Below, one piece after another: positions 3,982-22,909 of a DNA stretch of 64,000 bases. Positions within the stretch are counted from its first letter, which is position 1. The number at the start of each line of letters is the position of its first letter. Location: the IMG/VR virus record IMGVR_UViG_3300008111_000019, positions 47,088-111,087 of that record; one strand, given 5' to 3'. Under the pieces are notes generated by a model that was not told where the DNA came from, ran no database searches, and saw only the letters and a list, made by a program, of their open reading frames with translations. Both the position numbers and the translations under genes were made by a program. Origin of the DNA: a virus.

Positions 3982-3991
3982 GGTATAAGAC

Positions 3992-5830: not shown

Positions 5831-5849
5831 TAAAGAATTGGAGCGATAA

Positions 5850-7679
5850 ATGGCCTATGTAATTAATAAAACTAACGGATTACAGTTAATAGTCTTAGAA
5901 GACGGAACAGTAGATACGTCAACTAGTGTAGGTTTGGTAGGACGTAACTATACAGGTTACGGCGAAATCCAGAATGAAAATTTCTTAGGCCTTTTAGAAA
6001 ATTGGGCCAATGCTAATCCTCCTTCTCGTCCAATAAGTGGACAGACATGGTTTAATACTTTTAATAAAACTCTTAATGTCTATGAAGGAGACAAGTGGGT
6101 ACCTGTTGGGTCAACAGTGATTCAAAATACCAGTCCCGAAGGCATCGCTGGAACATTGTGGTTTAAAGGTTCAACAAAACAATTATTTGTCTATAATGAA
6201 AATGCATGGAATCTTGTTGGACCCGAAGGACTTGAAGGATTCGGAGAAACTAGATCTATTTCTACTTTTCTATTAGATTCAACTGGTGCTCAAAGACCAA
6301 TTATATTAAATGTTGTAGATGATAAAGTTATATCTATGACAGCCAGTTCGGCATACCTTATCAGGGCCAACGAACAAACTCATATCACTAACAAATACAA
6401 TTTAGGTTATACCGATAGCGTGTTAAGAACAGTTAGTTCTGGTGTTAACCTAAATATGTTTCCTTCTTTTGGTAATAATTTTATAGGTGCATTAGACGGA
6501 AATGCAGCATCTGCTAGTAGACTAGAAACTCCAAGATTTATCAACGGCATTGCCTTTGATGGACAGAATGATATAACAATAACTTCATCAACTACAGGTA
6601 CACTGAATAGGGGTAGTTATCTAACAGGGAATAATTTTAACGGTTTAAATACCGTGACTTGGGCTGTTGATGCTAGTTCATCTAATTTAATAGGTAAAGT
6701 TGTAGCCAGAGACAGCGCCGGCGACTTTGCTGCCGGAACAATTACAGCAAATTTAGTAGGTAATGTCACAGGTAATGTAACTGCTACAGAAGGCACAAGT
6801 TCTTTTAATGTGGTACAAGCCAACGAGTTTGTAGGAGCGCAACTATCTGGCAATGCGTTTACTGCAACTAGATTGAAAACTCCTAGAACTATAAACGGAG
6901 TAGCGTTCGATGGCAGTGCTGATATCACTGTTACTGCCGCTGCAGATACATTGACAGGTACACAGTTAGCGGCTAACATTGTTCAATTAGGTACACTGAA
7001 TCAATTGAATGTAGCGGACACTGGAATATCTATAGGTAATTCCGGTCAGTTAGATATTTTTATTGATGTGTCTATTCCTACTATTAGAGATACTTCATCA
7101 CAAGGCATTACTTTTAATATTATCGATAATACTATAGGCGATGTAGATTTCAAATTAATTAACAGTACACTGTCGCTATCTCTAGGAGGCGCTAACGCAC
7201 CTGCATTTGTGCCAGAAAATGACAATGTAACTCATTTAGGTATTGTTACTAAACGTTGGAATACTGTTCATGCTAATCTATTTCAAGGTACTGCTACTGC
7301 TGCACGTTATGCCGACCTAGCAGAAAACTATCTAGCAGATGTAGATTATGAACCAGGTACAGTTTTAGAATTTGGTGGCAGTCAAGAAGTTACTGTAGCA
7401 GAAGATGAAACTCGTAAAGTGGCAGGAGTTGTGTCTAGTAATCCAGCATATTTAATGAACAGCGAATTACAAGGCGATCATGTAGTTGCCCTAGCACTAC
7501 AGGGAAGAGTTCCTTGTAAAGTTAGAGGCAAAATCCGTAAAGGAGACATGCTAGTCAGTGGCGGAAACGGCTATGCTAGACCTACTATAGATCCTAAAAT
7601 AGGCACTATTATCGGTAAAGCACTGGAAGATTTTGAAGGTACAGACGGAATTATTGAAATTGTAGTGGGCAGAGTTTAA
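5850..7679 (+). CDS. Tail fibre protein with C-terminal intramolecular-chaperone/autocleavage-like domain
   Basis: Two LxTPRxINGxAFDG repeats; C-terminal YADLAENY..YEPGTV..GVVSSNPAYLMN..ALQGRVPCKV (peptidase G2/IMC-like). Confidence 0.8.
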   Translation: MAYVINKTNGLQLIVLEDGTVDTSTSVGLVGRNYTGYGEIQNENFLGLLENWANANPPSRPISGQTWFNTFNKTLNVYEGDKWVPVGSTVIQNTSPEGIAGTLWFKGSTKQLFVYNENAWNLVGPEGLEGFGETRSISTFLLDSTGAQRPIILNVVDDKVISMTASSAYLIRANEQTHITNKYNLGYTDSVLRTVSSGVNLNMFPSFGNNFIGALDGNAASASRLETPRFINGIAFDGQNDITITSSTTGTLNRGSYLTGNNFNGLNTVTWAVDASSSNLIGKVVARDSAGDFAAGTITANLVGNVTGNVTATEGTSSFNVVQANEFVGAQLSGNAFTATRLKTPRTINGVAFDGSADITVTAAADTLTGTQLAANIVQLGTLNQLNVADTGISIGNSGQLDIFIDVSIPTIRDTSSQGITFNIIDNTIGDVDFKLINSTLSLSLGGANAPAFVPENDNVTHLGIVTKRWNTVHANLFQGTATAARYADLAENYLADVDYEPGTVLEFGGSQEVTVAEDETRKVAGVVSSNPAYLMNSELQGDHVVALALQGRVPCKVRGKIRKGDMLVSGGNGYARPTIDPKIGTIIGKALEDFEGTDGIIEIVVGRV

Positions 7680-7690
7680 TAACAGGGTAC

Positions 7691-7698
7691 GATAAATA
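7691..7698 (+). promoter_or_regulatory. Late promoter GATAAATA
   Basis: T4-like late promoter motif in the intergenic gap, followed by GGAG SD and ATG 7721. Confidence 0.6.
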
Positions 7699-7720
7699 AG
7701 TGTATATACGGAGTTAATCA

Positions 7721-9466
7721 ATGGCATATCAAGTAGACAAGTTTAATGGGACGAGATTAGTCTCTGTAGAAGACGGCACCATTGATACCACTACCGACAT
7801 ACGTTTTGTAGGTAAAAACTACGCAGGATACGGTGAAGTACAGAACGAGAATTTTTTACATCTATTAGAAAATTTCTCAAATACCAGTGCTCCTCCTAAG
7901 GTAGTAACCGGGCAGATATGGTATGATAGTGGTAATAAAAAGTTAAGATTTTATGATGGTAGTCGTTTTAGGACTGCCAGCGGTGCAGAAATAGGAACGA
8001 CAGCCCCATCCGGGCTTCAAGCAGGAGATTTTTGGTTCGATACCAGCGCAGAACAGTTGTATGCTTATAACGGTTCTACGTTTGTTTTGATAGGACCAGA
8101 AACTACCCCAGAATTAGGTGCTGCCTCATTGACAGCACAGGTAGTAAAAGATACTCTAGGTACTAATCACAGCATAGGAAAAATTATTTCCGGCGGTGAT
8201 ACCATTGCTATTGTTAGTAAAGATGCGTTTACTCTAGACAGTGGGTTGAACCCCATTACTGGATTCACCACAATAAAGAAAGGTTTGAATCTTGTTAATA
8301 CTAACGGATCTACTGGAGTTACCAGTACAGACCACTTCTATTGGGGAACAGCATCAAATGCTGCTAGATTGGGTGGCTTTTTGGCCAGCGAATATGTAAG
8401 AACTGGAGAAGTTCGATTCGATACAGAGGTGAATTATTCAGATCCTGGTTTAACCATTGGCGGTAATTATCCTTCATACAGTAAAGATCTAGTTCTTAAA
8501 ATAGAGAATGGTGATGAACCAATTATTGAATCTAGATTAGCCAGCCCACTAACTCTTCGTGTAAGAGTTTCAGCCAGCGATGTGCGTAATTTTTATATTA
8601 CTTCTACAGGCTTTTTGCCAGGAGCCAATAATTTTTACAATTTAGGTTCTTCTACAGAAAATTGGGCTAATGTTTACGCTACGACATTTACAGGAAATCT
8701 AAGTGGATCAGTAACTGGTAACACGTCTGGTACACATACAGGTCCAATGGTAGGCAATTTAACCGGTAATGTGATTGGAAATTTAAATGGCACAGTCACA
8801 GGAAACGTTATTGGATCAGTTACTGGAACGGCTAGTAATGCTTTAACCTTAAACAGTCTAAATAGTGAATTTGGTGCAGTGGCAGTATCGGTGGCTATCA
8901 GAGACGCATCTGCCAATCTTACAGCAAACAGATTTATTGGAATCGCAGATAAGTCAGATAGATTAAAAATTGATGACAGTGCTACAGATACAGATCCTAG
9001 TTATAGGTCTGCTAAAACTCTTGCTTCTGGTAATACTATTGCAGCCAGAGATAGTTTAGGTAATTTGTTTGCAGTTTTGTTTGACGGTACTGCTACAGCA
9101 GCGAAATATGCTGACCTAGCAGAGAAGTATCTTACAGATCGTGAGTATGAACCAGGTACAGTAGTGACAGTGGGCGGCGAAGCAGAAGTTAGAGCCACTG
9201 TTTTTGGAGATCGTGCTATCGGAGTAGTAAGTACAAATCCAGCATTTATGATGAACAAAGAGTTAGAAGGTGGTACATATATTGCCCTAAAAGGTCGTGT
9301 ACCGTGCAAGGTAGTAGGATCGGTACGCAAAGGCGATCGATTAGTGGCTACAGAAAATGGTTGTGCTATCGCTGCCAGTTTCCATCAACATCCAGATGTT
9401 TTTGGTATCGCTTTACAAAGTGATCAAGATGTTGGCGTCAAAACTATAGAAGTGTTAGTATTATAA
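7721..9466 (+). CDS. Tail fibre protein with C-terminal intramolecular-chaperone/autocleavage-like domain
   Basis: Shared N-terminus; G-x-x-x repeats; C-terminal YADLAEKY..YEPGTV..GVVSTNPAFMMN..ALKGRVPCKV. Confidence 0.8.
   Translation: MAYQVDKFNGTRLVSVEDGTIDTTTDIRFVGKNYAGYGEVQNENFLHLLENFSNTSAPPKVVTGQIWYDSGNKKLRFYDGSRFRTASGAEIGTTAPSGLQAGDFWFDTSAEQLYAYNGSTFVLIGPETTPELGAASLTAQVVKDTLGTNHSIGKIISGGDTIAIVSKDAFTLDSGLNPITGFTTIKKGLNLVNTNGSTGVTSTDHFYWGTASNAARLGGFLASEYVRTGEVRFDTEVNYSDPGLTIGGNYPSYSKDLVLKIENGDEPIIESRLASPLTLRVRVSASDVRNFYITSTGFLPGANNFYNLGSSTENWANVYATTFTGNLSGSVTGNTSGTHTGPMVGNLTGNVIGNLNGTVTGNVIGSVTGTASNALTLNSLNSEFGAVAVSVAIRDASANLTANRFIGIADKSDRLKIDDSATDTDPSYRSAKTLASGNTIAARDSLGNLFAVLFDGTATAAKYADLAEKYLTDREYEPGTVVTVGGEAEVRATVFGDRAIGVVSTNPAFMMNKELEGGTYIALKGRVPCKVVGSVRKGDRLVATENGCAIAASFHQHPDVFGIALQSDQDVGVKTIEVLVL
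8686..8830 (+). repeat. Degenerate 12-nt (G-x-x-x) coding repeat in tail fibre
   Basis: FTGNLSGSVTGNTSGTHTGPMVGNLTGNVIGNLNGTVTGNVIGSVTG, Gly every 4 residues. Confidence 0.7.
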
Positions 9467-9476
9467 GGAATAGAAA

Positions 9477-10448
9477 ATGCCAATCGGTGATTTAATTAGT
9501 GTAACAGACTATAACAATATTAGAACTAAAATTTCTGGTATCATGGGACCAGGTTCTACTAACAGTGGATATGGTCAAACTTTGAATGCTCCTACAGCAT
9601 TATCATCAGGAGCCACAGTAACTAAAGCACAATGGGACAATTTAAGATTTGATATCTATAATGCCATAGTACACCAAACCGGTTCAGCACCTAGTATTAC
9701 TACAATTAATGAAGGCGATGTTATAAGATACGGAACATCCCATCCTAATTTTCAATATAACACATTAGCAGATCAAGCCATAACAAATAAATTCAATTTA
9801 GGCACAGGGCAGTTTGTTACAGAGGCTATTGGATCACAATCAAGATTCTCTAATTGGACTTCTTTAGTTACTTCCACAGTCACAATCAATTTTGCAGACA
9901 ATAATGCCTGTAGATATTTCTTTAACAGTGGCGGTAAAATACGATTTGCCAGCACTAGATCAGGCGGGTCAGGAACTCTTCAAGATCAAAGATGGTCTAG
10001 TTTATTAAGTGGTGCAGGGCAGCCGTTCTTTGCCGGTAATTCTACTTTATATCCTGCCTCTGGCGGTAATGCCACATACAATAATATTGGTTTTTGGCAA
10101 TTGACCACATCTGATCAACAGGTTTGGTCATTCCAAGCCAGTAGTCCCTATACTGCAAACACATGGGTGTTGCAGGCTAGATTGGCAAGTGGAACTACCA
10201 GTACCGCAACATCCGTTATACTAACAGTAAGATGGCAGGATAATTATGTTGATCCTGCAACATCTCCACATACACCAACTACCGTTCTTCCTTTTGACGA
10301 AGTAACAGGAACACTATCATTAAGTGTAGATCAAGTACGGGCTAGAGGCGAGTTGGCTCCTTCATTGATTCCTAACAGTTTTGCTATTACTGGCCCGATA
10401 TTAGTCGGTGGCGGTGCATCTACAGTAGGCGCTATTTCCGGTAGTTAA
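9477..10448 (+). CDS. Virion structural protein (fibre/baseplate associated)
   Basis: Ser/Thr/Gly-rich; last gene of fibre operon; SD AAGGA upstream. Confidence 0.55.
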   Translation: MPIGDLISVTDYNNIRTKISGIMGPGSTNSGYGQTLNAPTALSSGATVTKAQWDNLRFDIYNAIVHQTGSAPSITTINEGDVIRYGTSHPNFQYNTLADQAITNKFNLGTGQFVTEAIGSQSRFSNWTSLVTSTVTINFADNNACRYFFNSGGKIRFASTRSGGSGTLQDQRWSSLLSGAGQPFFAGNSTLYPASGGNATYNNIGFWQLTTSDQQVWSFQASSPYTANTWVLQARLASGTTSTATSVILTVRWQDNYVDPATSPHTPTTVLPFDEVTGTLSLSVDQVRARGELAPSLIPNSFAITGPILVGGGASTVGAISGS

Positions 10449-10454
10449 TTTTTC

Positions 10455-10498
10455 CTCCTATAAAACCACATATAAATAATGTGCGTATTTTATAGGAG
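10455..10498 (+). promoter_or_regulatory. RBS-occluding hairpin with late promoter TATAAATA (10471-10478) in its loop
   Basis: Perfect 11-bp IR CTCCTATAAAA/TTTTATAGGAG plus inner CACAT/ATGTG; 3' arm contains the AGGAG SD of ORF 10504. Confidence 0.8.
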
Positions 10499-10503
10499 TT
10501 CAC

Positions 10504-10854
10504 ATGGACGAACGTCTGGCTAAAGCCCTAGATTTTTCAAAATTTAGGCAAACACTAACATTAGAACGTAAAAATCTCAAAGAAAAAATTGATGCTAATC
10601 TAACCTACGGTTATAATGGAGGCATCTTTAAAATTGATAGATCTTTGATAGTATTTGTTCAAATGTTAATCGACCAACAGAGAACTGAAAATGTTCCTCT
10701 CCTAGATTCAAATGACACACCTATTTTAATTTCTGATTTGAATACCTTCAAAGACGAAATATTAGATAGGTATATGACTGCGGTTTATGAATATTTTAGG
10801 CAGTACGAAAAAATAAAAAAATCTAGATCAGTAGATAAACTTATAGAACTATGA
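10504..10854 (+). CDS. Hypothetical protein, first gene of GT/radical-SAM operon
   Basis: ORF with AGGAG SD; stop overlaps next start (ATGA). Confidence 0.75.
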   Translation: MDERLAKALDFSKFRQTLTLERKNLKEKIDANLTYGYNGGIFKIDRSLIVFVQMLIDQQRTENVPLLDSNDTPILISDLNTFKDEILDRYMTAVYEYFRQYEKIKKSRSVDKLIEL

Positions 10855-11708
10855 AAAAAGGAATAGTTATTTTCGCTCATAACAGCCGAAAGGTTGATTA
10901 TAGTCTTATGTCTATAATCGCTGGCGGCCTAGCGAAAAAGCATCTTCAGATGCCAGTCTCTTTGATAACTGATCAATCTACTATGGATTGGATGAGTACT
11001 AGCAGTGCTATAAAAGATGCCGAATCTGTTTTTGATCAAATTATTATAACCGAACGTCCTTACTCAGAAAATTATAGAACATTAAGTGATGGTAATCTTA
11101 TAGACAATGTTCCTTTTATTAACAACAATAGATTTTCAGTTTGGGATTTAACTCCTTACGATAGAACATTATTAATTGACAGTGATTTTTTAATTTTTTC
11201 AGACAGATTAAAATCTCATATTGATTCTGATATTGATCTAATGATTGGAGAATCTATGATCGATCTAGGCGGAAATCGAGTAGGCACTTTAGACAAGTAT
11301 GTTTCAGACACTGGCCCTAATTTATATTGGGCAACTAATGTAGTTTTTACAAAAAATGAAAATACAAAAATATTTTTTAATTTGGTAGACTACATAAAAG
11401 AAAATTATTCTTATTATTGTGATCTTTTTAGATTTTATCCTAGACCTTATAGGAACGATATTTCATTTAGCGTTGCTAAACATATACTAGACGGATATAA
11501 CAAATCTCAAGAACAAAGTTTACCGTCAATACCCACAACTACAGATAAAGATCTATTAGTGGATATAGATGCCAACGGAAAATTAATTTTTTTAATTAAT
11601 CAAGGTAATGACGATTACGTTGCAATCTCTATCAAGAATCAAGATGTTCATGTTATGAACAAACAGAGTTTGATAAGGAACAGTGAAGTTTTGCTTAAAT
11701 TAATATGA
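10851..11708 (+). CDS. GT-A fold glycosyltransferase-like protein (GT8-like)
   Basis: TPYDRTLLIDSDFL DxD motif; paralogous to next gene. Confidence 0.65.
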   Translation: MKKGIVIFAHNSRKVDYSLMSIIAGGLAKKHLQMPVSLITDQSTMDWMSTSSAIKDAESVFDQIIITERPYSENYRTLSDGNLIDNVPFINNNRFSVWDLTPYDRTLLIDSDFLIFSDRLKSHIDSDIDLMIGESMIDLGGNRVGTLDKYVSDTGPNLYWATNVVFTKNENTKIFFNLVDYIKENYSYYCDLFRFYPRPYRNDISFSVAKHILDGYNKSQEQSLPSIPTTTDKDLLVDIDANGKLIFLINQGNDDYVAISIKNQDVHVMNKQSLIRNSEVLLKLI

Positions 11709-12532
11709 AATTTGGATATTTACTAATCACCTCAAAAAACGAATCTGTTAACTATAACAAACTAGCCTATGCGTTAGCGTTGAGTATAAAAAACACACAG
11801 AAAGAAGGGTATGACCAAGTCTGCTTAGTTACAGACGATTTGTTGTCAGCAAAAAATTTTACATCTTCGTGGGTGTTTGATCAAATAATAGAACATCCAG
11901 GACACACTGGGTGGTCTGGCAGAAGTTATATGGACCAATTGAGTCCTTTTGATTACACAGTCTGTTTAGATGTTGACATGTTATTTTTAAATGATTGCAG
12001 TCATTGGGCACAATACTTTATTGAAAATACAGATTTGTTTATCACAGACAGAGCGTTTACCTATAGAGGCGAGCCTGTAACTTCCGATTATTATAGAAAG
12101 ACATTTACGGCTAATAACTTGCCAAACCTATATAGTTATTATACATTCTTCAAACGAGATTCAGATCAAGTAAAAGAATTTTTTACCTTGCAAAGAGAAA
12201 TTTATAATAATCCTACAGAATTTTCTAATGTCTTTCTCAACGAATTCAAACCTAAAATAATTGGAACAGATGAAGCGTTTGCTTTGTCTGCAAAATTGTT
12301 AGAACTAGAATTTCCTAAATTAGAATTTCCTAACGTAGTACACATGAAAGGTCAAGTACAAAACTGGCCTTGGCCCGCTGACGAATGGACCAATCATGTG
12401 GGATTTTATTTTAACAAAACTGGATTAAAAATAGGAAATTTTCAACAGAAAGATCTTATACATTATGTTAATAAAGATATTATCCTGGATGAAATAATCA
12501 GTATACTTGAGGAAACAGCATGGAAGAAGTAA
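11705..12532 (+). CDS. GT-A fold glycosyltransferase-like protein (GT8-like)
   Basis: ALALSIK..VCLVTD..SPFDYTVCLDVDMLF DxD motif. Confidence 0.65.
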   Translation: MKFGYLLITSKNESVNYNKLAYALALSIKNTQKEGYDQVCLVTDDLLSAKNFTSSWVFDQIIEHPGHTGWSGRSYMDQLSPFDYTVCLDVDMLFLNDCSHWAQYFIENTDLFITDRAFTYRGEPVTSDYYRKTFTANNLPNLYSYYTFFKRDSDQVKEFFTLQREIYNNPTEFSNVFLNEFKPKIIGTDEAFALSAKLLELEFPKLEFPNVVHMKGQVQNWPWPADEWTNHVGFYFNKTGLKIGNFQQKDLIHYVNKDIILDEIISILEETAWKK

Positions 12533-13107
12533 TTGACTTCGATCAATGGTATCAAACTCATAATATAGAAATTGAGTACTGGGCAGTTTATGATCCTGAA
12601 ACGGGTAAAGTAAAAGGAATATATCCTAACCAATCTGCAGATTCCTTCGAACATAAAATTAAAGTAGATCAAGAAACAGGAGAAGCCATAGGTTCTGGAA
12701 AAATATCATTGGCTAATTGTTATATTGATTTTGAATCAGATACTCTTGAAATAATAGAAATTAAATCGTTGATTAAAATTGACGATGTTCTACACAGAAT
12801 AATAGACAGTCGCTGGGCCGATTCAAAAGATCCCGACCTAACAATCAGTGTCAAAGATAATAATTTAATTTTTTCTTTGTCAGACAAAGTAAAATCAAAA
12901 AAAAGAATTCATTATAACGGTGATACTATAATGGATTTTTACATTACCGAATACAACGATCCTAATATACTTTTTGAAAAATTTTCAATACAATTAAATC
13001 AGTTAATTGACGAGGAAAAAAGTTTTCAAATTAAATTGCCTCAAAAATTTAGTGTGTATACACGTCGCATTTTTAAAAAATATATTCTTATAAATGAAAA
13101 CAATTGA
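12520..13107 (+). CDS. Hypothetical protein
   Basis: 195-aa ORF overlapping both neighbours. Confidence 0.7.
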   Translation: MEEVIDFDQWYQTHNIEIEYWAVYDPETGKVKGIYPNQSADSFEHKIKVDQETGEAIGSGKISLANCYIDFESDTLEIIEIKSLIKIDDVLHRIIDSRWADSKDPDLTISVKDNNLIFSLSDKVKSKKRIHYNGDTIMDFYITEYNDPNILFEKFSIQLNQLIDEEKSFQIKLPQKFSVYTRRIFKKYILINENN

Positions 13108-14011
13108 ATTTGATGTAATCTTTTTAAGTTATGACGAGCCTAATGCAGATCTGCATTATGCTGATTTATGCAGTAAGGTACCTTGGGCTAAACGTGTACA
13201 CGGTGTTAAAGGTTCCGACCATGCTCACAAAGCCGCAGCAAATTTATCAGATACTGATTGGTTTATCACTGTGGATGCTGATAATATTGTAGATCCTAAA
13301 TTTTTTAATATTGATCTAGATATGAGTGATCCTAAGATACAGGTCTATGGATGGTGCGGTCGTAATGTGATCAACGGATTGCGTTACGGAAACGGCGGAT
13401 TAAAAATTTGGAAGAAAGATTTTGTGCTTAACATGAAAACGCACGAAAACTCAGATAGTGATCGCGGACAAGTAGATTTTTGTTGGGAAGATGGATATCG
13501 TAACTTTCCTTTAAGTTTCAGCGACAGTATCATTACAGGTTCTCCATTTCAGGCTTGGAGAGCAGGATTTCGAGAAGGTGTTAAAATGACCTTACTTGAT
13601 GGTGTTAAAGTTCCTGCACAAGAAATACAACAGAGAATATGGTGGCATAATATCCATAGACTGCGCATGTGGTCTACAGTTGGTAGCCATGAAGAAAATG
13701 GAATCTATGCAGTATATGGTGCAAGATTAGGCACATGGATGGCCAACTGCACCGAATGGAATTATGTAGATGTAAGAGATTTTGAAATACTTAGAGGTAT
13801 ATGGCAGCAGTACGGAAAACCTTATGAAGAAGTTAACGAAGACGGCCTAGTTGACGAAATAAAAAATCTCGGAGAAAAAATAAAATACAATCTAGGATTA
13901 GATTGGCCTTGGCTAGATGCCCAACAGAGCAAATATACTTTGGATTTATATAATGAAACTATGAATCTAAACGATACTTATTTCCGGATGCCGGTGCCTG
14001 CAGATGTATGA
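13094..14011 (+). CDS. GT-A (family 2-like) glycosyltransferase
   Basis: DVIFLSYDEP..AHKAAA..WFITVDADN DxD motif..YGNGGLK. Confidence 0.7.
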   Translation: MKTIEFDVIFLSYDEPNADLHYADLCSKVPWAKRVHGVKGSDHAHKAAANLSDTDWFITVDADNIVDPKFFNIDLDMSDPKIQVYGWCGRNVINGLRYGNGGLKIWKKDFVLNMKTHENSDSDRGQVDFCWEDGYRNFPLSFSDSIITGSPFQAWRAGFREGVKMTLLDGVKVPAQEIQQRIWWHNIHRLRMWSTVGSHEENGIYAVYGARLGTWMANCTEWNYVDVRDFEILRGIWQQYGKPYEEVNEDGLVDEIKNLGEKIKYNLGLDWPWLDAQQSKYTLDLYNETMNLNDTYFRMPVPADV

Positions 14012-15992
14012 TATTTTTTACGTTTCAAAAACAAAAGGCAATGATGATGACTGGGCAACATTTAAGTCAGAATATCCTATTGCACAACGTTTAACAAATG
14101 TAACATCCTACGAACAAATTAAGTCAAAAGCATTTACAAAAATGTTTTGGGTAGTTTGGGATGATCTTAATTTACTAAAAACATTTAATTTAAATAATTA
14201 TAGAGCAACAAAATGGGACGATATGTATGTTCACGTTTTTAAAAACGGAGAACATCATGACGGAGTTTGTTTATTTCCTAAATCATTAAATGTTTCTCAA
14301 AAAGAATTTCATCATAGATTTTTTACAGCAAAAAAAGAAATAGAGATTAACGCTAGTACTCCAAAGAAATATAATATCTATACTCCGCAATCATATGATG
14401 AGTATAAGTCTATAGAAGATGAAATGTTCTGGTGTATATGGCCAGAGGTTGAAGTTACAGACGAATCTATTTTTGATTTATATTTCAGCCATCATAACAC
14501 ATATGATCGCAGAGAAAATCATATTTTTAAAAACACATGTAACGAAGTTGATTCGTATATGAGTGGCATCGTGCTTTGTAGCAGGTATAAGCGAATTTCA
14601 TCTCGAGAGTTTGAAAAACAATATCTTGTTGATAAAAAAGAATACGATGTAACTGCCAGCAAATTTAGATACCCTAGGCATGTTATACATAGTTATGAAC
14701 AATACTTAGAAATTTTAAACAACGAAAGCCAAAGTATGTTTTGGGGTATATGGCCAGAGATTGAAATAATTGACACAACAATACTTGATTTTTACTTTGA
14801 TCCTAACAATAAAGAATATGATGCTGACAGACATCAAAATCATATGTTTAAAAATTTATGTAATAATGAAGAGTCTTATCTTAACGGACTTGTTTTATTT
14901 TCTAAAGAGAAAACTATATCGAAAAAAGAATTTTCTCGCAGATATCTAATCGAGAAAAAAGAACATAACAAGGTTGTTAGTCGTTATAGATATCCTAGAT
15001 ATGTTATGCATAGTTATGAGCAGTACTTAGAAATTTTAAACAATGAAAGTCAAAAAATGTTCTGGGGTATATGGCCAGAAGTTGAAATTATAGATCAATC
15101 TATTTTTGGTTTATATTTTGATCCCAGAGACTGGAAAGAACAATACGACACCAGCGAAAATAACACATTTAAACATAGTTTCAATGATAAGATAATATCA
15201 ATGAATAGTCCAGTATTATTTTCTAAACAGAGTCCTATAGGAAAACGAGAATTTTCTCATAGATTCTTAACCAATAAAAAAGAAAATGATAAAGTTATCT
15301 CCAAGCATAAATTATATGATGTAGTTTTTATAAGTTATAATGAACCGAATGCAGATGAAAACTATCAAAAATTACTAGATAAATGTCCCAGGGCTAAGAG
15401 AGTACATGGTGTAAAAGGAATACATCGGGCTCATATTAAGGCAGCGGAATTGTCAGAAACAGACATGTTATGGATAGTGGATGGTGATGCTATCATATCC
15501 AATGATTTCAATTTTGATCTAGTATATTTTAGTTACAGTTATGATGTAGATTGCGTTCACGTATGGAGTAGTCGGAACCCTATTAACGGTTTAGAATACG
15601 GATATGGCGGAGTAAAATTGCTTCCAAGATTATTAACATTGAATATGGACTTAAATACTGCCGACATGACTACATCTATATCTAAAAAATTCAAATCGAT
15701 GAATGTTGTATCTAATATCACTGTCTTTAATACTGATCCTTTTAACACATGGAAATCGGCATTTAGAGAATGCGCTAAGTTAGCCAGTAAGGTAATAGAA
15801 AGACAAGACAATGACGAAACAATTAAACGATTAGATACATGGTGTGAAGTTGCCGATGGGGATTACGGATATTATGCCATTGCAGGAGCATTAGCAGGTC
15901 GTGCATACGGAGAGCAGAATAAAGGTAACTTCGAAACACTTAAGAAGATAAACGATTTTGACTGGTTAAGAGAAAAATTTAATGCAGGATAA
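14004..15992 (+). CDS. Glycosyltransferase with four N-terminal degenerate repeats and a C-terminal GT2-like domain
   Basis: C-terminal DVVFISYNEP..AHIKAA..MLWIVDGDA..YGYGGVK paralogous to 13094; four ~105-aa MFWxxW repeats. Confidence 0.7.
   Translation: MYDIFYVSKTKGNDDDWATFKSEYPIAQRLTNVTSYEQIKSKAFTKMFWVVWDDLNLLKTFNLNNYRATKWDDMYVHVFKNGEHHDGVCLFPKSLNVSQKEFHHRFFTAKKEIEINASTPKKYNIYTPQSYDEYKSIEDEMFWCIWPEVEVTDESIFDLYFSHHNTYDRRENHIFKNTCNEVDSYMSGIVLCSRYKRISSREFEKQYLVDKKEYDVTASKFRYPRHVIHSYEQYLEILNNESQSMFWGIWPEIEIIDTTILDFYFDPNNKEYDADRHQNHMFKNLCNNEESYLNGLVLFSKEKTISKKEFSRRYLIEKKEHNKVVSRYRYPRYVMHSYEQYLEILNNESQKMFWGIWPEVEIIDQSIFGLYFDPRDWKEQYDTSENNTFKHSFNDKIISMNSPVLFSKQSPIGKREFSHRFLTNKKENDKVISKHKLYDVVFISYNEPNADENYQKLLDKCPRAKRVHGVKGIHRAHIKAAELSETDMLWIVDGDAIISNDFNFDLVYFSYSYDVDCVHVWSSRNPINGLEYGYGGVKLLPRLLTLNMDLNTADMTTSISKKFKSMNVVSNITVFNTDPFNTWKSAFRECAKLASKVIERQDNDETIKRLDTWCEVADGDYGYYAIAGALAGRAYGEQNKGNFETLKKINDFDWLREKFNAG
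14667..15300 (+). repeat. Tandem ~321-nt coding duplication
   Basis: YPRHVIHSYEQYLEILNNESQSMFWGIWPE at ~14667 and YPRYVMHSYEQYLEILNNESQKMFWGIWPE at ~14988, near-identical DNA at their starts. Confidence 0.85.
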
Positions 15993-17352
15993 AGCTAGAA
16001 TACAAAAATTTATTCCTATTATGAATGAAGTTTCGCCGACTTTTTGTTTAGCGAAATGGCATCATACTACGATTTATTTACAGACAGGTGAAACTCATAG
16101 TTGTTATCACCCTCCACCACACCCAATTCCTCTTGAAGAGTTAATAATGAATCCCGGTGCATTACATAATACTACTCAAAAGAAAATGGAAAGGCTGGAA
16201 ATGCTCAACGGAGAAAAACCCAGCGGTTGTAACTATTGTTGGAATATAGAAGCACTAGGCGAAGATTATATCAGCGATCGAAAAGAAAGAAATGCCAGCA
16301 TTTACAATCTCGAAAGATTTGATCAGATTAAAAACGGCGATTGGGATCAAAATATTAATCCTCAATATATAGAAATAAGTTTTGGTAACGAATGTAATTT
16401 CAAGTGCGGGTATTGTCACCCTAAACATTCAAGCAGTTATTACAAAGAAATAAAAGATCACGGTCCTTATACTATGGTTAAAAATCATAGGAACGACATT
16501 GATTGGTTTAAAATTTATGAAGAAGAAAATAATCCGTATGTAGATGCCTGGTGGCGTTGGTGGCCTGAAGTACGTAATACTCTGACAATTCTAAGAATAA
16601 CAGGAGGCGAACCGTTACTGCAACAAAGTACTTGGCGCCTGTTAGAAGATCTGGAAAACAACCCGTCGCCTGATCTTGAACTTAATATTAACAGCAATTT
16701 TGGTGTAAAGCCTATACTTTTAGATAGACTTACTGAAAAGGTCAATAATTTAATAGAAAATAAAAAAATTAAAGATTTTAAAATTTTCACTAGTATGGAT
16801 ACTTGGGGTCCCCAAGCAGAGTATATTCGAACAGGATTAGACATTGAACTATGGGAAAGAAATCTCAATACCTACCTAACTAAAACCAATTTGCCCATAA
16901 CATTCATGATTACCTTTAATATATTAACGGTTCCAAATTTTTCAACTTTATTAACTAAAATTTTAGAGTGGAGACAGAAATATAATCATGATAATCAAAA
17001 CAAATGGCAACGTGTGAGATTCGATACTCCGTTTTTAAAAGAACCGTTGCAGTATGATATGAATATATTGCCTAAAGAAGAATTCATGCCCTATATGTAC
17101 GATCATTTAAATTTTATCAAAGATAATTTAGATGATAAAAATAGGTTTAAATTTAGTGAATTAGAATATGAAAAATTTTTAAGGGTAGTGAAGTACATGG
17201 AAACTACCAACTATAGCAATGATAAATTAACTGAAGGAAGAAAAGATTTTTATAATTGGTTCAACGAGTACGATCGAAGACGAGGAACTAATTTTGAAGA
17301 AACCTTCCCTCAACTAAGAAATTTTTTAGAGATGTGTAAAAATTATGGATAA
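15982..17352 (+). CDS. Radical SAM protein with N-terminal Twitch/SPASM-like domain
   Basis: CNFKCGYC, TGGEP; N-terminal FC..SCYH..CNYCW. Confidence 0.9.
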   Translation: MQDKARIQKFIPIMNEVSPTFCLAKWHHTTIYLQTGETHSCYHPPPHPIPLEELIMNPGALHNTTQKKMERLEMLNGEKPSGCNYCWNIEALGEDYISDRKERNASIYNLERFDQIKNGDWDQNINPQYIEISFGNECNFKCGYCHPKHSSSYYKEIKDHGPYTMVKNHRNDIDWFKIYEEENNPYVDAWWRWWPEVRNTLTILRITGGEPLLQQSTWRLLEDLENNPSPDLELNINSNFGVKPILLDRLTEKVNNLIENKKIKDFKIFTSMDTWGPQAEYIRTGLDIELWERNLNTYLTKTNLPITFMITFNILTVPNFSTLLTKILEWRQKYNHDNQNKWQRVRFDTPFLKEPLQYDMNILPKEEFMPYMYDHLNFIKDNLDDKNRFKFSELEYEKFLRVVKYMETTNYSNDKLTEGRKDFYNWFNEYDRRRGTNFEETFPQLRNFLEMCKNYG

Positions 17353-19798
17353 AGACAATTTTTGTTTACAGCCTTGGGTAGGAATTCATGCATGGCCAGA
17401 CGGGTCAGTTTTCCCCTGCTGTATGTACGATTCAAGTAAACCCCTTGGAAACATTAATCAAGAACATATTGAAGATTTAGTTAATAACGATTCTTACAAG
17501 CAATTAAGACACCAGTTACTAAACAACGAACGTCCCGAGGGATGTAAGCGTTGTTATCAGTTAGAAGAATCGGGCATTCAAACACTAAGACAATCAACCA
17601 GTGCTACGTTCAAGAAACATCTAATTCCTATTGTTGAATCAAAAAAAGATACAATGAGTGAAGTTAGGTATCTTGATATTAGATTTAGTAATATCTGCAA
17701 TTTCAAATGCAGAACATGTGGCCCCGAATTAAGCAGTAAGTGGGGACCCGAGATTCCTCTTTTAAAAAATCAACCAGATCCTGGAATTATTCAAATACCA
17801 AGAGAAAAGTTTTGGAATTATTACGAACAGGCTTTAGAAACTGCTGAAGAAATAGTTTTTGCTGGGGGTGAGGCATTGATGCAAGAAGAGCATTATGCTG
17901 CCTTAACAAAATTGATCGAGATGAAACGCTTCGATGTCAAGTTAATGTATACTACGAATCTTAGCACTTTGAAATACAAACAGATAGATCTTTTTGAATT
18001 ATGGAGTAAGTTTTATAGAGTTGAAGTGTATGCTAGTTTAGATGCATCGTGGGAGCGAGGAGAATACTTACGAAAAGGCACTGTATGGAAAAATATAGTT
18101 GAAAACAGGAAAAAATTAAAATTATTGCCCGGCGTAAAATTCCATATCACGCCTACTATAAGTCTTTATAATGTATGGCATTTTCCAGATTTCTATAAAG
18201 AGTGGGTGCTAGAAGAATTACTAGAACCTAAGAATATTAGATTGAATATACTAACACAGCCCCCTCGTCAACAGGCCAATGTGCTAGAAAATAAACATGT
18301 CATTATCGATAAATGGAACGAACTAATTACATGGACCAAGGCTGTAATGAAAAATACAGAAGCCAGTTCAGCAGTAGTAAGTCAGTTTGAAAGTGTGATA
18401 AATTTTTTAATGACTGAACCAGAAAATAAATTTAAATTAACAGAAAAATTTGGATACGTTAATCAATCAGTTGACAGCATTCGAAATGAAGATCTTTTTG
18501 AAACTTTCCCAGAACTTAGAGATCATTTAAAAATTCCATCGATGAGATCTAAAACGTTTTGTGTATTTCCTTTCTTTAATTTAAACAGCAATACAGATGG
18601 TAGTGTAAAACTTTGTTGTACTGTGCGAGATAATTCACACCTTAAAAAATCTGACGGTACTGAATTTAATTTAGGTCAGGATTCTATAGAAGAAATTTGG
18701 AATAACGAACATATGCAGAATGCTCGCTGGAAAATGCTAGTGGGTGAAGAAGTTTCTGACTGCCAAGTTTGTTATAGACACGAAAAATTATCCGGTAGTA
18801 GCAGTAGAACTGAATCTAATAAAAAATATCAATCTGATATTAATGTTATAAAGTCAGTGAATGAATTTTTACACAATTCAAAAGTATCTCTAGACAAATT
18901 AACTAGTTTAGAATTAAGATTGGGCAATACTTGTAATTTGGCCTGTAATTCATGTTGGGGCGGCAGTAGTAGTAAAGTCAATGAAGAACGGCAACGTATT
19001 TTAGATAAAGAGACGGAAAATAAAAAATATCAGGTAATGTGGGCCAGTGAACGAAATATTCCTGCTGATATTAATAAATGGTTTAAAAATGAAACATACA
19101 AAGATACTATGGAGAAAGTATCGGGTAATCTTAAAAGAATATACCTTACAGGCGGCGAACCGACTTTGATCAAAGAAAATAGAACATTACTAAAAAATCT
19201 TATAGAATCTAACAATACAGATTGTTTTGTAAGTTTTACTACTAATGGTACAACAGCAGAAGGCGAACTGTTAGATTTAATGTCTCATTTCCCTAATAAT
19301 GAGATACAGATCAGTATAGATGGTGTTGGGTATGAAGGAAATTATATTAGACATCCTTTAAATTGGCAAGAATTTGATAATAACTTTACTGCTATTGCAG
19401 CCCTGCCAAATATCAAGATTGTTGTTTATTCTGTGATCAGTGCTTACAATTTATTTTCTTTACCAGACATATGGCGTTATCTCGATAACAAAGCAGAATA
19501 TCGCCCTGTAGGTTGGTATCCTATTTTCTTAGATAATCCAAACTTTATGCGCACTACGATATGGAGTAGTGAAATGAGATCAGATGCTGTGATTAAAATG
19601 CAAGAAGCAGAGGGACAACTAAAACATCTAAATAGATATGTAGGTCAAGAAGTGTTCCAAAAAATTTACGAATACTATTACAGTGAAGAATACCAAAAAG
19701 ATAAGATCAGTGAGTTTTTAGAATTTAATAGACTGCTGGACAAACATAGAGGCACGAATTTCGAGTCTACATTTTTTGAGATATCATGCCGAATCTAA
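17345..19798 (+). CDS. Tandem double radical SAM protein (two Twitch-like+rSAM units)
   Basis: CNFKCRTC/AGGEA and CNLACNSC/TGGEP, each preceded by FC.xP..G...CC..CxxC. Confidence 0.9.
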   Translation: MDKDNFCLQPWVGIHAWPDGSVFPCCMYDSSKPLGNINQEHIEDLVNNDSYKQLRHQLLNNERPEGCKRCYQLEESGIQTLRQSTSATFKKHLIPIVESKKDTMSEVRYLDIRFSNICNFKCRTCGPELSSKWGPEIPLLKNQPDPGIIQIPREKFWNYYEQALETAEEIVFAGGEALMQEEHYAALTKLIEMKRFDVKLMYTTNLSTLKYKQIDLFELWSKFYRVEVYASLDASWERGEYLRKGTVWKNIVENRKKLKLLPGVKFHITPTISLYNVWHFPDFYKEWVLEELLEPKNIRLNILTQPPRQQANVLENKHVIIDKWNELITWTKAVMKNTEASSAVVSQFESVINFLMTEPENKFKLTEKFGYVNQSVDSIRNEDLFETFPELRDHLKIPSMRSKTFCVFPFFNLNSNTDGSVKLCCTVRDNSHLKKSDGTEFNLGQDSIEEIWNNEHMQNARWKMLVGEEVSDCQVCYRHEKLSGSSSRTESNKKYQSDINVIKSVNEFLHNSKVSLDKLTSLELRLGNTCNLACNSCWGGSSSKVNEERQRILDKETENKKYQVMWASERNIPADINKWFKNETYKDTMEKVSGNLKRIYLTGGEPTLIKENRTLLKNLIESNNTDCFVSFTTNGTTAEGELLDLMSHFPNNEIQISIDGVGYEGNYIRHPLNWQEFDNNFTAIAALPNIKIVVYSVISAYNLFSLPDIWRYLDNKAEYRPVGWYPIFLDNPNFMRTTIWSSEMRSDAVIKMQEAEGQLKHLNRYVGQEVFQKIYEYYYSEEYQKDKISEFLEFNRLLDKHRGTNFESTFFEISCRI

Positions 19799-20745
19799 TA
19801 GCCATTTCTCCCAAAGACAATCCGTACCTTGCTATAACATGGCAGGTTAATAATTTTTGCAATTATAGGTGTAGTTATTGTAACGAAGGAAACTGGAGTG
19901 GGTCTTACACTAATGAAGATAAAATTGATGTTTTATTAGAAAATTTAGAAAAAATAATAAAATATTATCAAGATAACGGTTATGTATATTTCAAGTTTTA
20001 TTACAGTGGCGGTGAACCTACCCTCTGGAAAGGTTTAATACCAGTATCTAATTTTCTCAAAGAGAGATTGGGTCATAATGTAACTTTAGGAATTAATACA
20101 AACCTAAGTAGAAAAATTTCTTGGTGGGAAAAACATTATCAATTGTTTGATGATGTAGTTGCTAGTTATCATCCTGAGTTTGCAAATAAATCAAATTACT
20201 TAGAAATTGCAGAATTTTTACAAAATAAAGTAAATTATCTTTGTTTAAGAATGATGCTGTTAGAAGAAAAGTTCGATGACATGTTAACAGTAGGAGCAGA
20301 AATTAAAAGTAAATTAAAGAATTACAATCTTGAATGGGTTCCGCTATTAGATGAAATGAGTGTTGTAACGGGCCCGTGGAAATACAAAGATTCTAGAATA
20401 TCGGATTTTATATCAAAAAATAATTTTGAATCTAAGGTAACTATATATAAACCCGAACCAAAAACAGTAATTGCTTCAGTAGAAAAATACGATGATGGCA
20501 CTGTAAAGACTTTGAATAGTAATAGAATCGTAGCAGAAAACAGAAATTTTTTCCAAGGATGGAAATGTAAAGTTCAGGAATCTATTTTTATTTCACCTAG
20601 CGGAACAATGAGAGCCGCAAGTTGCGGCCAAGGACCGATGTTAGGAAACATATTCGATGTTTTTAAATTAACGTCAAATGACGTTATCTGTCAAAAGGAC
20701 TATTGTCATTGCGGAACTGATATATTAATTACTAAAGAAAAATGA
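19786..20745 (+). CDS. Radical SAM protein with C-terminal Cys cluster
   Basis: CNYRCSYC, SGGEP; C-terminal WKC..SC..ICQKDYCHC. Confidence 0.9.
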   Translation: MPNLIAISPKDNPYLAITWQVNNFCNYRCSYCNEGNWSGSYTNEDKIDVLLENLEKIIKYYQDNGYVYFKFYYSGGEPTLWKGLIPVSNFLKERLGHNVTLGINTNLSRKISWWEKHYQLFDDVVASYHPEFANKSNYLEIAEFLQNKVNYLCLRMMLLEEKFDDMLTVGAEIKSKLKNYNLEWVPLLDEMSVVTGPWKYKDSRISDFISKNNFESKVTIYKPEPKTVIASVEKYDDGTVKTLNSNRIVAENRNFFQGWKCKVQESIFISPSGTMRAASCGQGPMLGNIFDVFKLTSNDVICQKDYCHCGTDILITKEK

Positions 20746-21977
20746 CCAGAAAAAATTTTTGCCTATATCCTTTTGCTGCGTTTAGTCTTGATAATGCAGG
20801 CAGACAACGTATATGTTGTAATAATCAAGGATATGATAGATTAGAAAAAAATAAAGAATTTAACGATCCCACGTTTGAAGTCTTAGAATCTTTTAATAAT
20901 GATTTTCATAAAGAAATAAGAAAATATTTCATAGAAGATAAAAAACATCCTACTTGTAAAAAATGTTGGGAGATTGAAAGTAACGGAAAAATAAGTTGGA
21001 GACAATGGTTCAACGAAAGTTTCGGAGTTTCAATGGATGAAGAATATTGGATTTCGAAATGTGACGCAGACGGTACTATCAAAGAAGCAGAATTTTATTA
21101 TCTAGATATCACGTTCGGTAACAGATGTAATCTTAAATGCGTAATGTGTAACGGATTTAACAGTACTTTATTTCTAAAAGAACAATTAGATACCAAACAA
21201 ATACCTATAGAACATTATGATAGAATGATGAAGTTAGATTGGTATCATGACGGAAGTTGCCTTGAAAAACTGTATCCTTTTGTCAGCAAGGTTGAAAGAA
21301 TACATATTGTTGGCGGCGAACCTTTAATAATTGATCATCAAGCATTTTTACAAAAATTTATTGATCTCGGAATATCTAAGAACATAGTATTAAGTTATAA
21401 TTCTAATCTTACTAAAACACCAAGAGAAATATTAGACTGTTGGAAAGAATTCAAACGTGTTTATTTGTGTGTAAGTGTTGATGCTTACGGTAAATTAAAT
21501 GAATTTATTAGATATCCAATGAAATGGAATAAGTTAATAGATAATTTAGAAACTATTGATGCTGTGGCTAAAGAACAAGAAAATATTAGCATACAGATAC
21601 ATGCAACATTTAGTTCATTAAACTGTGATAGGATTATAGAGTTTTTAGATTGGCACAAGGAAATATCTACACAATTAACATCGATTGAACCTCATCCCAT
21701 GTTCAATTATGTTTATAACCCTAAATATTTTGATCCAACACATCTTCCTCAAGAAACTAAAAATAAAATATACGAAGATTATATCAAATGGGAATCAAAT
21801 AATCTCGAATACTTAGAAAGAAACGGAACCAGAGAAAGAATTGATATGTTGAAAAGTTATATCGAAAAAATGATAAAGTCTGGAAGAAACGAAAAACTAT
21901 ATCGAGACGGCATAGATAAAATTGCTTTCTTTGAAAAAGTAAGAGATATTACTTTTCCTACTAAAACAGAGTCTTAG
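20742..21977 (+). CDS. Radical SAM protein with N-terminal Twitch/SPASM-like domain
   Basis: CNLKCVMC, VGGEP; FCLYPF..ICC..CKKCW. Confidence 0.9.
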   Translation: MTRKNFCLYPFAAFSLDNAGRQRICCNNQGYDRLEKNKEFNDPTFEVLESFNNDFHKEIRKYFIEDKKHPTCKKCWEIESNGKISWRQWFNESFGVSMDEEYWISKCDADGTIKEAEFYYLDITFGNRCNLKCVMCNGFNSTLFLKEQLDTKQIPIEHYDRMMKLDWYHDGSCLEKLYPFVSKVERIHIVGGEPLIIDHQAFLQKFIDLGISKNIVLSYNSNLTKTPREILDCWKEFKRVYLCVSVDAYGKLNEFIRYPMKWNKLIDNLETIDAVAKEQENISIQIHATFSSLNCDRIIEFLDWHKEISTQLTSIEPHPMFNYVYNPKYFDPTHLPQETKNKIYEDYIKWESNNLEYLERNGTRERIDMLKSYIEKMIKSGRNEKLYRDGIDKIAFFEKVRDITFPTKTES

Positions 21978-22266
21978 TTGAATCGGTAATATCTCTTTTC
22001 AATCTTTCTATATCTATTTTAAAATCTATCTTTTTTATTTCGTCTTTGTACTCTTGAAGAGTCTCTAATAGTTTTTCTGCGATAGATTCTGGAGCAGACC
22101 CTTGGAGTTGAGCACGTACATCAATCTGCCATATCCTGCCATCTTCAAACGTTAAATGTACCATTTCAAGATATGCAACAGGCATGGTATTCATGTACAT
22201 ATCTTCAAATACCTCCGGCCACTCTTTTACAAGATGCATTGGCGGTCTAAACAACGGCTTAGGCAT
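21961..22266 (-). CDS. Hypothetical protein
   Basis: Last gene of minus-strand operon; converges on the rSAM gene with a 17-bp overlap. Confidence 0.7.
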   Translation of the reverse strand: MPKPLFRPPMHLVKEWPEVFEDMYMNTMPVAYLEMVHLTFEDGRIWQIDVRAQLQGSAPESIAEKLLETLQEYKDEIKKIDFKIDIERLKRDITDSTKTLF

Positions 22267-22909
22267 CTGCTGTTTCTTTAGTCTTTGAAGATTTTTTTAC
22301 AGTCGGATCTAGATCTTCTGCTTCTTTACGTAGACGTGCTGCTTCTTTGTATAGTGCATCTGCTTGACTGCGTAATCCTTTAGCAATATCTTTGTCAGAT
22401 AATATTTCATTCTGCTGTGCTTGAATTTTTGCAGGCTTGCTAGGTTCTCCTAGATCTTTTCCCAGGTCGTTAACTGCGGCAACATTTTCTACAGTAGCAT
22501 CTGACTGTTTTGGAGCACCGGATACAAATGTACATAGATCGTCAACAGCACAGTTTTTTTGCTCTGCTATCAACGAATTTAATTGATGCAACGGAATGTT
22601 ATCATTGGGTGTAGGAGTCATTAGAACAGAATCAGTAGTTACTCTTTCCAATAATCCGTCTGCTCTTAGTGCCTGTAGCATTGGACGACCATCTGGAAAA
22701 CTTCTAATAAAAAGAATTTCACCAAACTCAAAAACTTCTTGAGCCTGATCACTTTCTACTACTTTCATAATAGAGTCGTGATATGTATCAGATAACTGAG
22801 CCACAGGAATAACTAGAGAATAGTTAGATTCTCCGGGGAGCGTCCTGAATACCACCAAAACTTTCGCTCCCGATTTGATCATTCTACCAGTGTGTTTTAG
22901 TGCTCTCAT
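22259..22909 (-). CDS. Hypothetical protein with C-terminal coiled coil
   Basis: 216-aa ORF, SD AAGGA. Confidence 0.75.
   Translation of the reverse strand: MRALKHTGRMIKSGAKVLVVFRTLPGESNYSLVIPVAQLSDTYHDSIMKVVESDQAQEVFEFGEILFIRSFPDGRPMLQALRADGLLERVTTDSVLMTPTPNDNIPLHQLNSLIAEQKNCAVDDLCTFVSGAPKQSDATVENVAAVNDLGKDLGEPSKPAKIQAQQNEILSDKDIAKGLRSQADALYKEAARLRKEAEDLDPTVKKSSKTKETADA

Follow-up and report, generated by a model that had tools for sequence, protein, structure and literature searches.

The DNA studied is the final 64 kb of an IMG/VR contig of 111 kb (record IMGVR_UViG_3300008111_000019, positions 47,088 to 111,087; this whole stretch is referred to below as the window) from an uncultured freshwater giant phage; the contig is estimated to cover ~31% of a jumbo-phage genome. 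Directly behind its tail-fibre genes lies an operon of ten genes, g1 to g10, which combines putative glycosyltransferases (GTs) with radical S-adenosylmethionine (SAM) domains. Judged from its sequence, the operon is a genuine phage module, widespread as well as conserved, and it is best read as building a glycan and editing it by radical chemistry; the aim of the module is probably the virion.

Predicted enzymes of the operon

Ten plus-strand open reading frames (ORFs) fill positions 10504-21977, exactly the extent that a preliminary description of this DNA had given. All nine junctions overlap, by 4-14 nt each, and a single, translationally coupled transcription unit is the best explanation of this layout. 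The only gap is a 55-nt leader; since intergenic gaps are absent inside the operon, there is neither a separate precursor-peptide gene nor room for one. Hydrophobicity (Kyte-Doolittle) reaches at most 1.6 in every 19-residue stretch of the ten products, and because none exceeds this value they all look soluble. The features are as follows.

g0: 9477..10448, plus strand; 323 aa, fibre-like, 24% Ser+Thr; one to two copies upstream of g1 in relatives
Leader: 10455..10498, plus strand; TAAATAA promoter-like element and hairpin
g1: 10504..10854, plus strand; 116 aa, no Cys, conserved core; 36% identity with the ORF354 product of RsoM2USA
g2: 10851..11708, plus strand; 285 aa, GT8-like GT-A protein; DSD at nt 11178-11186
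g3: 11705..12532, plus strand; 275 aa, paralogue of g2; DVD at nt 11969-11977
g4: 12520..13107, plus strand; 195 aa, conserved core; homologue of RsoM2USA ORF351
g5: 13094..14011, plus strand; 305 aa, GT-A residues 1-170 and a helical C-terminal domain; DAD at nt 13274-13282
g6: 14004..15992, plus strand; 662 aa, degenerate repeats followed by GT-A residues 436-660; DGD at nt 15480-15488
g7: 15982..17352, plus strand; 456 aa, NF033640 radical SAM protein, the core radical SAM gene; CxxxCxxC at nt 16393-16416
g8: 17345..19798, plus strand; 817 aa, two fused NF033640 enzymes; CxxxCxxC at nt 17696-17719 and 18932-18955
g9: 19786..20745, plus strand; 319 aa, radical SAM protein of another type with a Cys-rich C-terminus; CxxxCxxC at nt 19858-19881
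g10: 20742..21977, plus strand; 411 aa, NF033640 radical SAM protein, last gene; CxxxCxxC at nt 21126-21149

The preliminary description had proposed ten tightly overlapped genes behind the fibre genes with no evident precursor peptide, among them four GT-A proteins with DxD motifs, four CxxxCxxC proteins (most of them with an N-terminal, Twitch-like Cys cluster) and two genes of no recognisable family. All of these points held up under the analyses described here, which included a Foldseek comparison that it had named as a check.

None of g1-g6 is named by Pfam, PHROGs or NCBIfam and, because all six miss the curated GT cut-offs, the GT assignments rest on predicted fold together with the DxD motif. 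The AlphaFold2 model of g2 has the GT-A fold with a DxD site that typifies CAZy family GT8 (predicted local distance difference test score, pLDDT, 89), and in Foldseek it retrieved glycogenin, GlyE and UGGT at E 2e-7 over ~240 aligned columns. Glycogenin, Streptococcus pneumoniae GlyE and the UGGT catalytic domain are its best fold matches, yet they are only 10-14% identical to it. The profile of the g2 family also aligned with glycogenin at the DxD motif, at a sub-threshold E of 0.22. The g3 protein is tied to the g2 family by hhalign (probability 97%, E 1e-10), and gave no matches among PDB sequences in single-sequence and profile searches. The aspartates of both motifs (D110 and D112 in the DSD of g2, D89 and D91 in the DVD of g3) are invariant in their families. 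Neither protein matched Pfam PF01501 (Glyco_transf_8) at E <=0.01.

The g5 model, built on a 50-sequence alignment of distant relatives, reached a pLDDT of 93.5 and has a GT2-like GT-A fold over residues 1-170, with a DxD motif that comes after a beta strand and in which D63 is invariant and D61 is conserved in at least 90% of the family. Its best Foldseek match was A64R of the chlorovirus PBCV-1 (E 5e-6), and the Che8 glycosyltransferase was among the viral fold matches (E 2e-4). VIA-align over residues 1-170 gave Z 9-11 to B4GALNT1, WrtF, SpsA and A64R. Nucleotidyltransferases with the same fold reached Z 8-9, and we therefore only infer the type of transferase that g5 represents. No Pfam GT2 model matched g5, and 4 of the 50 family members matched one weakly (best E 0.002-0.02). 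A64R, which belongs to the glycosylation of the chlorovirus major capsid protein (PDB 2P6W/2P72/2P73), is the best solved-structure match to g5 (VIA-align Z 9.4 over 143 residues, root-mean-square deviation 3.8), and both are virus-encoded, soluble GT-A proteins with DxD. However, they are 15-18% identical, ~130 residues at the C-terminus of g5 form an additional helical domain, and virus and host are unrelated. Many other GT-A enzymes match g5 equally well (Z ~10).

Residues 436-660 of g6 are a paralogue of g5, the g5-family hidden Markov model scoring 187 bits there and weakly on residues 2-82. The front part of the protein consists of four degenerate GT-A-like repeats of ~105 aa each from which DxD has been lost, R1-R3 being ~50% mutually identical. 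Among relatives g6 ranges from 181 to 973 aa, and this appears to reflect the number of repeats ahead of the catalytic domain. PDB sequence searches with the operon proteins gave matches below threshold to A64R (E 0.47), GmaR (0.21) and glycogenin (0.22). Each of the GT families keeps its DxD aspartates unchanged or almost unchanged. Together, the models and profile comparisons show four predicted GT-A domains with intact DxD, in g2, g3, g5 and the C-terminus of g6. By predicted fold or paralogy, g2 and g3 resemble GT8 enzymes and g5 and the g6 C-terminus GT2-type GT-A enzymes, yet they miss the sequence models of those families.

Five CxxxCxxC motifs are found in the four proteins g7-g10. Against a cut-off of 170 bits for NF033640 (N_Twi_rSAM), g7 scored 314.5, g10 288.3 and g8 656.1 bits, the last being two complete enzymes fused (~residues 1-397 and 398-817; 362.7 and 305.4 bits). 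With scores of 288-363 bits, g7, the g8 halves and g10 have the N-terminal Cys cluster and the CxxxCxxC motif of this family, which is defined by sequence only; the phage members form an array that includes one two-enzyme fusion. At 34-36 bits g9 is a non-member; it has a Radical_SAM Pfam match (E 5e-8) and a weak match to the STM4011 family. In an alignment of 24 sequences, the N-terminal cysteines (C7, C25/26, C72 and C75 in g10 numbering), which lie ahead of CxxxCxxC, vary little or not at all. In the family profile, N-terminal positions 7-75 aligned to residues 168-236 of BtrN, its twitch domain (E 0.005), and the core was nearest to viperin (E 4e-5). BtrN, the butirosin 2-deoxy-scyllo-inosamine dehydrogenase (PDB 4M7S/4M7T), acts on a carbohydrate-like substrate and its auxiliary-cluster domain is homologous. 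However, the twitch is C-terminal in BtrN and N-terminal in the operon proteins, whose core is closer to viperin, and the pathway context is not common to the two. Pfam PF13186 (SPASM) matched g8 with 61.1 bits (cut-off 21.5), best over residues 7-71, and did not match g7, g9 or g10 at E <=0.01. These comparisons show five predicted radical-SAM domains with intact cluster motifs, four of NF033640 type and that of g9 of another. We found no literature on the reaction of any NF033640 member, or on a characterised radical SAM enzyme with an N-terminal twitch. None of these radical SAM genes was found to belong to a known cofactor pathway; membership of such a pathway was what the preliminary description had named as evidence against its reading.

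The remaining two genes stayed unnamed. For g1, Pfam, PHROGs and NCBIfam gave no match and ESM Atlas returned unnamed viral clusters only; a lead to DUF4376 was dropped when Pfam searches with four homologues gave no confirmation. Pfam matched g4 only below threshold (DUF5620, E 8e-4, 20.2 bits against a cut-off of 25), and in ESM Atlas g4 likewise fell into unnamed viral clusters only.

Conservation of the module in jumbo phages

A scan of IMG/VR with g5 returned 430 related stretches, of which 80 were fetched. The order g0-g1-g2-g3-g4-g5-g6, followed by one or more radical SAM genes, was fixed in the 80 loci, and the genes 3' of g6 varied: NF033640 genes numbered from one to at least five, accompanied in some loci by a B12-radical SAM gene, a DUF6492 protein and unnamed proteins. 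Five of the 80 loci, all from the closest relatives, had g9. When presence was anchored on an unrelated convergent gene (22259-22909) in relatives with sufficient flanking sequence, the cluster was found in ~48 of 50 related IMG/VR contigs. In this comparison the smallest versions (loci L177 and L215) had a single radical SAM gene, of the g7 type.

Megablast of the phage collection gave no match. Among 50,697 GenBank phage records, the GT core occurred only in the cultured Ralstonia jumbo phage RsoM2USA, in which ORF354-348 are homologues of g1, g2, g3, g4, g5, a g7-type radical SAM gene and the g6 C-terminus, in that order; the syntenic radical SAM protein, ORF349, is 37% identical to g7. The RsoM2USA cluster follows directly on the tail sheath gene ORF359 and on ORF356, a structural protein confirmed by mass spectrometry, which covered major bands only (RsoM2USA paper). 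The synteny comparison across related jumbo phages that the preliminary description had suggested thus found the core kept both in nearly all relatives and in RsoM2USA. Given the fixed order, the synteny with RsoM2USA and the versions with a single radical SAM gene, the conserved unit is g1-g6 plus one g7-type radical SAM gene, and g8-g10 are a variable cassette.

The genes of the unit diverge at very different rates. Across relatives, g5 is 85-93% identical, which makes it the best-conserved gene of the operon, g1-g4 40-65% and g0 35-47%. For g5, the ratio of nonsynonymous to synonymous divergence (dN/dS) is ~0.04 with dS >1.5; since synonymous sites are near saturation, this indicates strong constraint on g5 and not recent transfer. 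We had considered the conservation of g5 exceptional, but rejected this because it is no higher than that of the capsid protein (86-89%) or of DNA polymerase (87-90%) encoded by these genomes; by sequence comparison g5 thus evolves as a core gene does. The radical SAM proteins and the remaining GTs evolve fast, near the rate of fibre-like g0. The pattern of divergence, fast in g1-g4 (50-60% identity) and g0 and slow in g5 (88-90%, as in the capsid protein and DNA polymerase), would fit a role at the host interface.

Public data contain 1235 clusters of g5 proteins at 50% identity, and >8000 clusters when only near-identical proteins are grouped. The GT core was found only in phages. Two apparent bacterial carriers, metagenome-assembled genomes (MAGs) labelled 'Haliscomenobacter' and 'Legionellales', were rejected as containing mis-binned jumbo-phage contigs (GTDB genome contigs L091, L095 and L096). 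We read these contigs as phage because of capsid genes 72-77% identical to that of the phage: in the Haliscomenobacter MAG the cluster-bearing contigs themselves carry capsid genes (77%), and in the Legionellales MAG the capsid gene (72%) is on a contig other than that of the cluster. Regarding the host, the mis-binning is no more than a faint indication.

Likely substrate and proposed target of the pathway

Several associations link the radical SAM enzymes to sugars. GT genes accompany NF033640 genes in three phage lineages, namely the freshwater group, RsoM2USA and Vibrio phage K566, in the last of which (locus L088) a Pfam GT8 gene lies between radical SAM genes, with three to four of them around it. 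RsoM2USA has a second radical SAM locus (L007, 118.9-136.2 kb), in which the NF033640 gene ORF202 is flanked by three DUF6071 paralogues and a carbamoyltransferase gene. A relative, G001 (IMGVR_UViG_3300042907_001080), also has a second island, of ~28 kb (~230-258 kb), with six NF033640 genes above cut-off and several other radical SAM-like frames, ~80 kb from its fibre-linked cluster; this island contains an SDR gene of the family of nucleoside diphosphate (NDP)-sugar epimerases and dehydratases (233438-234124). A carbamoyltransferase gene of G001 lies elsewhere in the genome, outside the island.

Bacterial NF033640 genes (Bdellovibrionota, Bacteroidota, Polyangia) form tandem arrays of two to six and adjoin PMT_2/GT-C, ABC-2 transporter, DegT, GT2, SGNH and carbamoyltransferase genes. 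The phage genes differ from them in being tied to the GT-A core, which the bacterial arrays lack. Because the bacterial arrays sit among envelope-glycan genes, they support a role in building or editing sugars. The family is not uniform, however, since shorter NF033640-like proteins in Vicingaceae and other Flavobacteriales (L113, L115, L120, L132, L136, L137 and L143) are encoded beside the haem-synthesis genes hemE (URO-D) and hemB (ALAD), a HemL-type aminotransferase gene and the gene of ChaN, which binds haem; by their neighbourhood, this subgroup suggests a separate, haem-related role. The preliminary description had proposed a pathway that builds and radically tailors a glycan on virion proteins, specifically Ser/Thr-rich fibres, or on the host surface. 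The pathway itself has gained independent support from the linkage in three lineages, the SDR gene of G001 and the bacterial arrays. The Ser/Thr richness did not stand: the fibres contain 17-20% Ser/Thr, which is ordinary for such proteins.

Building a glycan and tailoring it is, in our view, the likely function of the operon. More specifically, and only tentatively, we favour the possibility that it builds and radically edits a sugar decoration on a cytoplasmic acceptor, most likely the tail fibres or other virion proteins. In such a scheme g5 would carry out a constant step, such as attachment of the first sugar, and the fast-evolving, GT8-like g2 and g3 together with g6 would extend the glycan from host NDP-sugars. 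The NF033640 enzymes, using a 5'-deoxyadenosyl radical and a BtrN-like auxiliary cluster, could then oxidise, epimerise or deoxygenate the sugars or alter them in some other way, and the variable number of radical SAM genes would diversify the product between phage lineages.

The virion is a plausible target. GT genes embedded in a structural module, the arrangement expected for virion glycosylation, are found both in the window and in RsoM2USA, and the promoter-like motif of the operon is common to baseplate and fibre genes. The enzymes all appear soluble, no flippase or priming transferase accompanies them, and their diversification keeps a fibre-like pace. The best fold matches, moreover, include protein-glycosylating enzymes, some of them viral (PBCV-1 A64R, the Che8 glycosyltransferase, glycogenin and GlyE). 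Glycosylation of virions by viruses is known from chloroviruses and mycobacteriophages, and we found no link to radical SAM enzymes in that literature; to our knowledge neither the chlorovirus capsid nor the mycobacteriophage virion system uses them. The mycobacteriophage case is reported by Freeman and colleagues (2023, Cell Host Microbe 31:1216); there, likewise, phage GT-A genes lie beside structural genes.

A number of observations weigh against this reading. In addition to the failure of all of g1-g6 at curated GT cut-offs and the near-equal fold scores of nucleotidyltransferases against g5, the operon contains no gene for NDP-sugar synthesis, and no NTP_transferase gene was found in the relatives. 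Most characterised SPASM/twitch radical SAM enzymes modify peptides rather than sugars. The fibres have no special Ser/Thr tracts that might serve as acceptors, and one of the strict promoter-motif sites discussed below precedes a DNA polymerase gene. Soluble GTs could, finally, act equally well on lipid-linked intermediates of host glycans at the inner face of the membrane.

This last point leads to the idea that GTs and radical SAM enzymes remodel the host envelope, acting at the cytoplasmic face on lipid-linked O-antigen, capsule or lipopolysaccharide intermediates, for instance as a barrier to superinfection or so that progeny do not adhere to debris; we regard it as unlikely. Many O-antigen GTs are indeed soluble peripheral proteins, and the loci that hold the bacterial NF033640 arrays resemble envelope-glycan loci in their genes for ABC-2 transporters and GT-C enzymes. 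A study of pelagimyophages reads the GT8 genes and radical SAM cassettes of the fibre hypervariable region in just this way (PMC7029224). However, the operon encodes neither a membrane protein nor a flippase, polymerase or priming transferase; the GtrA-like flippase and polytopic GT of Gtr-type seroconversion are both missing, 0 of the 10 proteins having a hydrophobic stretch above 1.6. It also has the same promoter-like motif as baseplate and fibre genes, it lies inside a structural module in both phage lineages, and a change of the surface shortly before lysis would bring little gain. We think it less likely again that the radical chemistry is directed at protein, with the NF033640 enzymes maturing side chains (by cross-links or epimerisation) on g1, g4, g0 or the fibres and the GTs glycosylating the same protein separately. 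The SPASM match of g8 (E 1e-16), weaker matches of this type of radical SAM protein to SkfB, PapB and other peptide maturases, the lack of sugar-nucleotide genes in the operon and the constant company of the unnamed g1 and g4 all point this way. Yet the adjacent precursor gene expected for a maturase of ribosomally synthesised and post-translationally modified peptides is missing at the operon, which has no space for a small one, and g1 lacks Cys altogether. BtrN, with its carbohydrate-like substrate, has the auxiliary domain most similar to theirs, a sugar enzyme of the SDR family is encoded inside the radical SAM island of G001, and the annotated neighbours of the bacterial arrays are of glycan-type families (small ORFs were not screened there).

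The weakest of the rivals, and a very improbable one, is hypermodification of DNA, in which GTs would glycosylate modified bases and radical SAM enzymes tailor the adduct as a defence against restriction. Phage GTs that act on DNA are classical in T4, and the 7-deazaguanine genes of the window, among them a QueE-like one at 26301-27158, indicate that the phage does modify its own DNA. However, the replication and modification genes are on the other strand, apart from the operon, which shares promoter-like motif and position with tail genes; no hydroxymethylase of the thymidylate synthase family was found in relatives that are up to 80% complete; and the best fold matches are GT-A enzymes directed at proteins or glycans, not GT-B enzymes of the T4 type.

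Returning to the glycan decoration of the virion, a bolder extension, possible but on balance doubtful, is that NF033640 represents a new class of radical glycan editors and that a constant GT core with a shuffled radical SAM cassette lays down a lineage-specific glyco-coat of unusual chemistry on fibres or virion. If true, such a coat would tune adsorption or shield the particle, and would place a hypervariable host-interface trait in sugar chemistry, not in fibre sequence. The preliminary description knew of no characterised phage pathway with this make-up. The arrangement itself had been described in pelagimyophages, in which GT8 genes and radical SAM cassettes lie beside tail-fibre genes and the cassettes vary among close relatives (Zaragoza-Solas et al. 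2020, PMC7029224); its function was not demonstrated there, the authors having proposed modification of the host O-chain from a genomic description. That cluster belongs to another phage group, and a fixed g1-g6 core is not described for it. A literature search found no description of a jumbo-phage GT-radical SAM island. Since a small version is present in the cultured and published RsoM2USA, bench experiments can address the question directly; should the product turn out to sit on fibres, it would add a new layer to the determination of host range as well as new sugar-editing enzymology.

Leader element and neighbouring genes

The leader of g1 contains the conserved TAAATAA element, here as TATAAATA at 10471-10478. 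There are 4 strict sites of TATAAATA in the 111 kb against ~15 expected, each of them in an intergenic region ahead of a gene and in the right orientation. As a stand-alone motif the strict form was set aside as too rare, the relaxed forms ATAAATA/TAAATAA carrying the signal: ATAAATA is present in 11 of the 32 intergenic regions that lie upstream of genes, where 0.22 would be expected (~50-fold enrichment), with sites preceding the genes for the baseplate hub, the baseplate wedge and fibre f581, and g1. Nine relatives retain the TAAATAA core, ~35 nt ahead of where g1 begins, although its flanks have diverged. The leader also folds into a predicted hairpin (-16.3 kcal/mol, z -4.2), which holds TATAAATA in its loop and the Shine-Dalgarno sequence AGGAG in its 3' arm.

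We take the TAAATAA element to match the late-promoter consensus of T4, and by this analogy it is a candidate late-promoter element of the phage group. Since one of the four strict sites precedes the DNA polymerase gene, which is atypical for a late gene, we infer rather than assert that expression is late. The late promoter of the preliminary description is therefore real as a conserved motif, its lateness resting on the analogy with T4. Sigma-70-like promoters precede some minus-strand genes of the contig.

The tail-fibre genes upstream of the operon (1909-9466) share a common N-terminus and differ in their C-termini. Between them and the operon lies g0, which is always 5' of the operon in relatives, where it is often duplicated or fused; one fused form, of 573 aa, has a Gly_rich_2 domain. 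It is probably part of the fibre module, and a possible acceptor. At its 3' end, g10, the operon faces convergent minus-strand genes. The QueE-like radical SAM gene (minus strand; phrog_2076, E 3e-52) is separate from the operon, and an exonuclease gene lies near it on the same strand. The contig also encodes the major head protein and the baseplate hub and wedge. The stretch that separates the fibre genes from the gene for the baseplate wedge holds a single ORF of 13.7 kb (~4570 aa; contig positions 34606-48315), the end of which occupies positions 2-1228 of the window.

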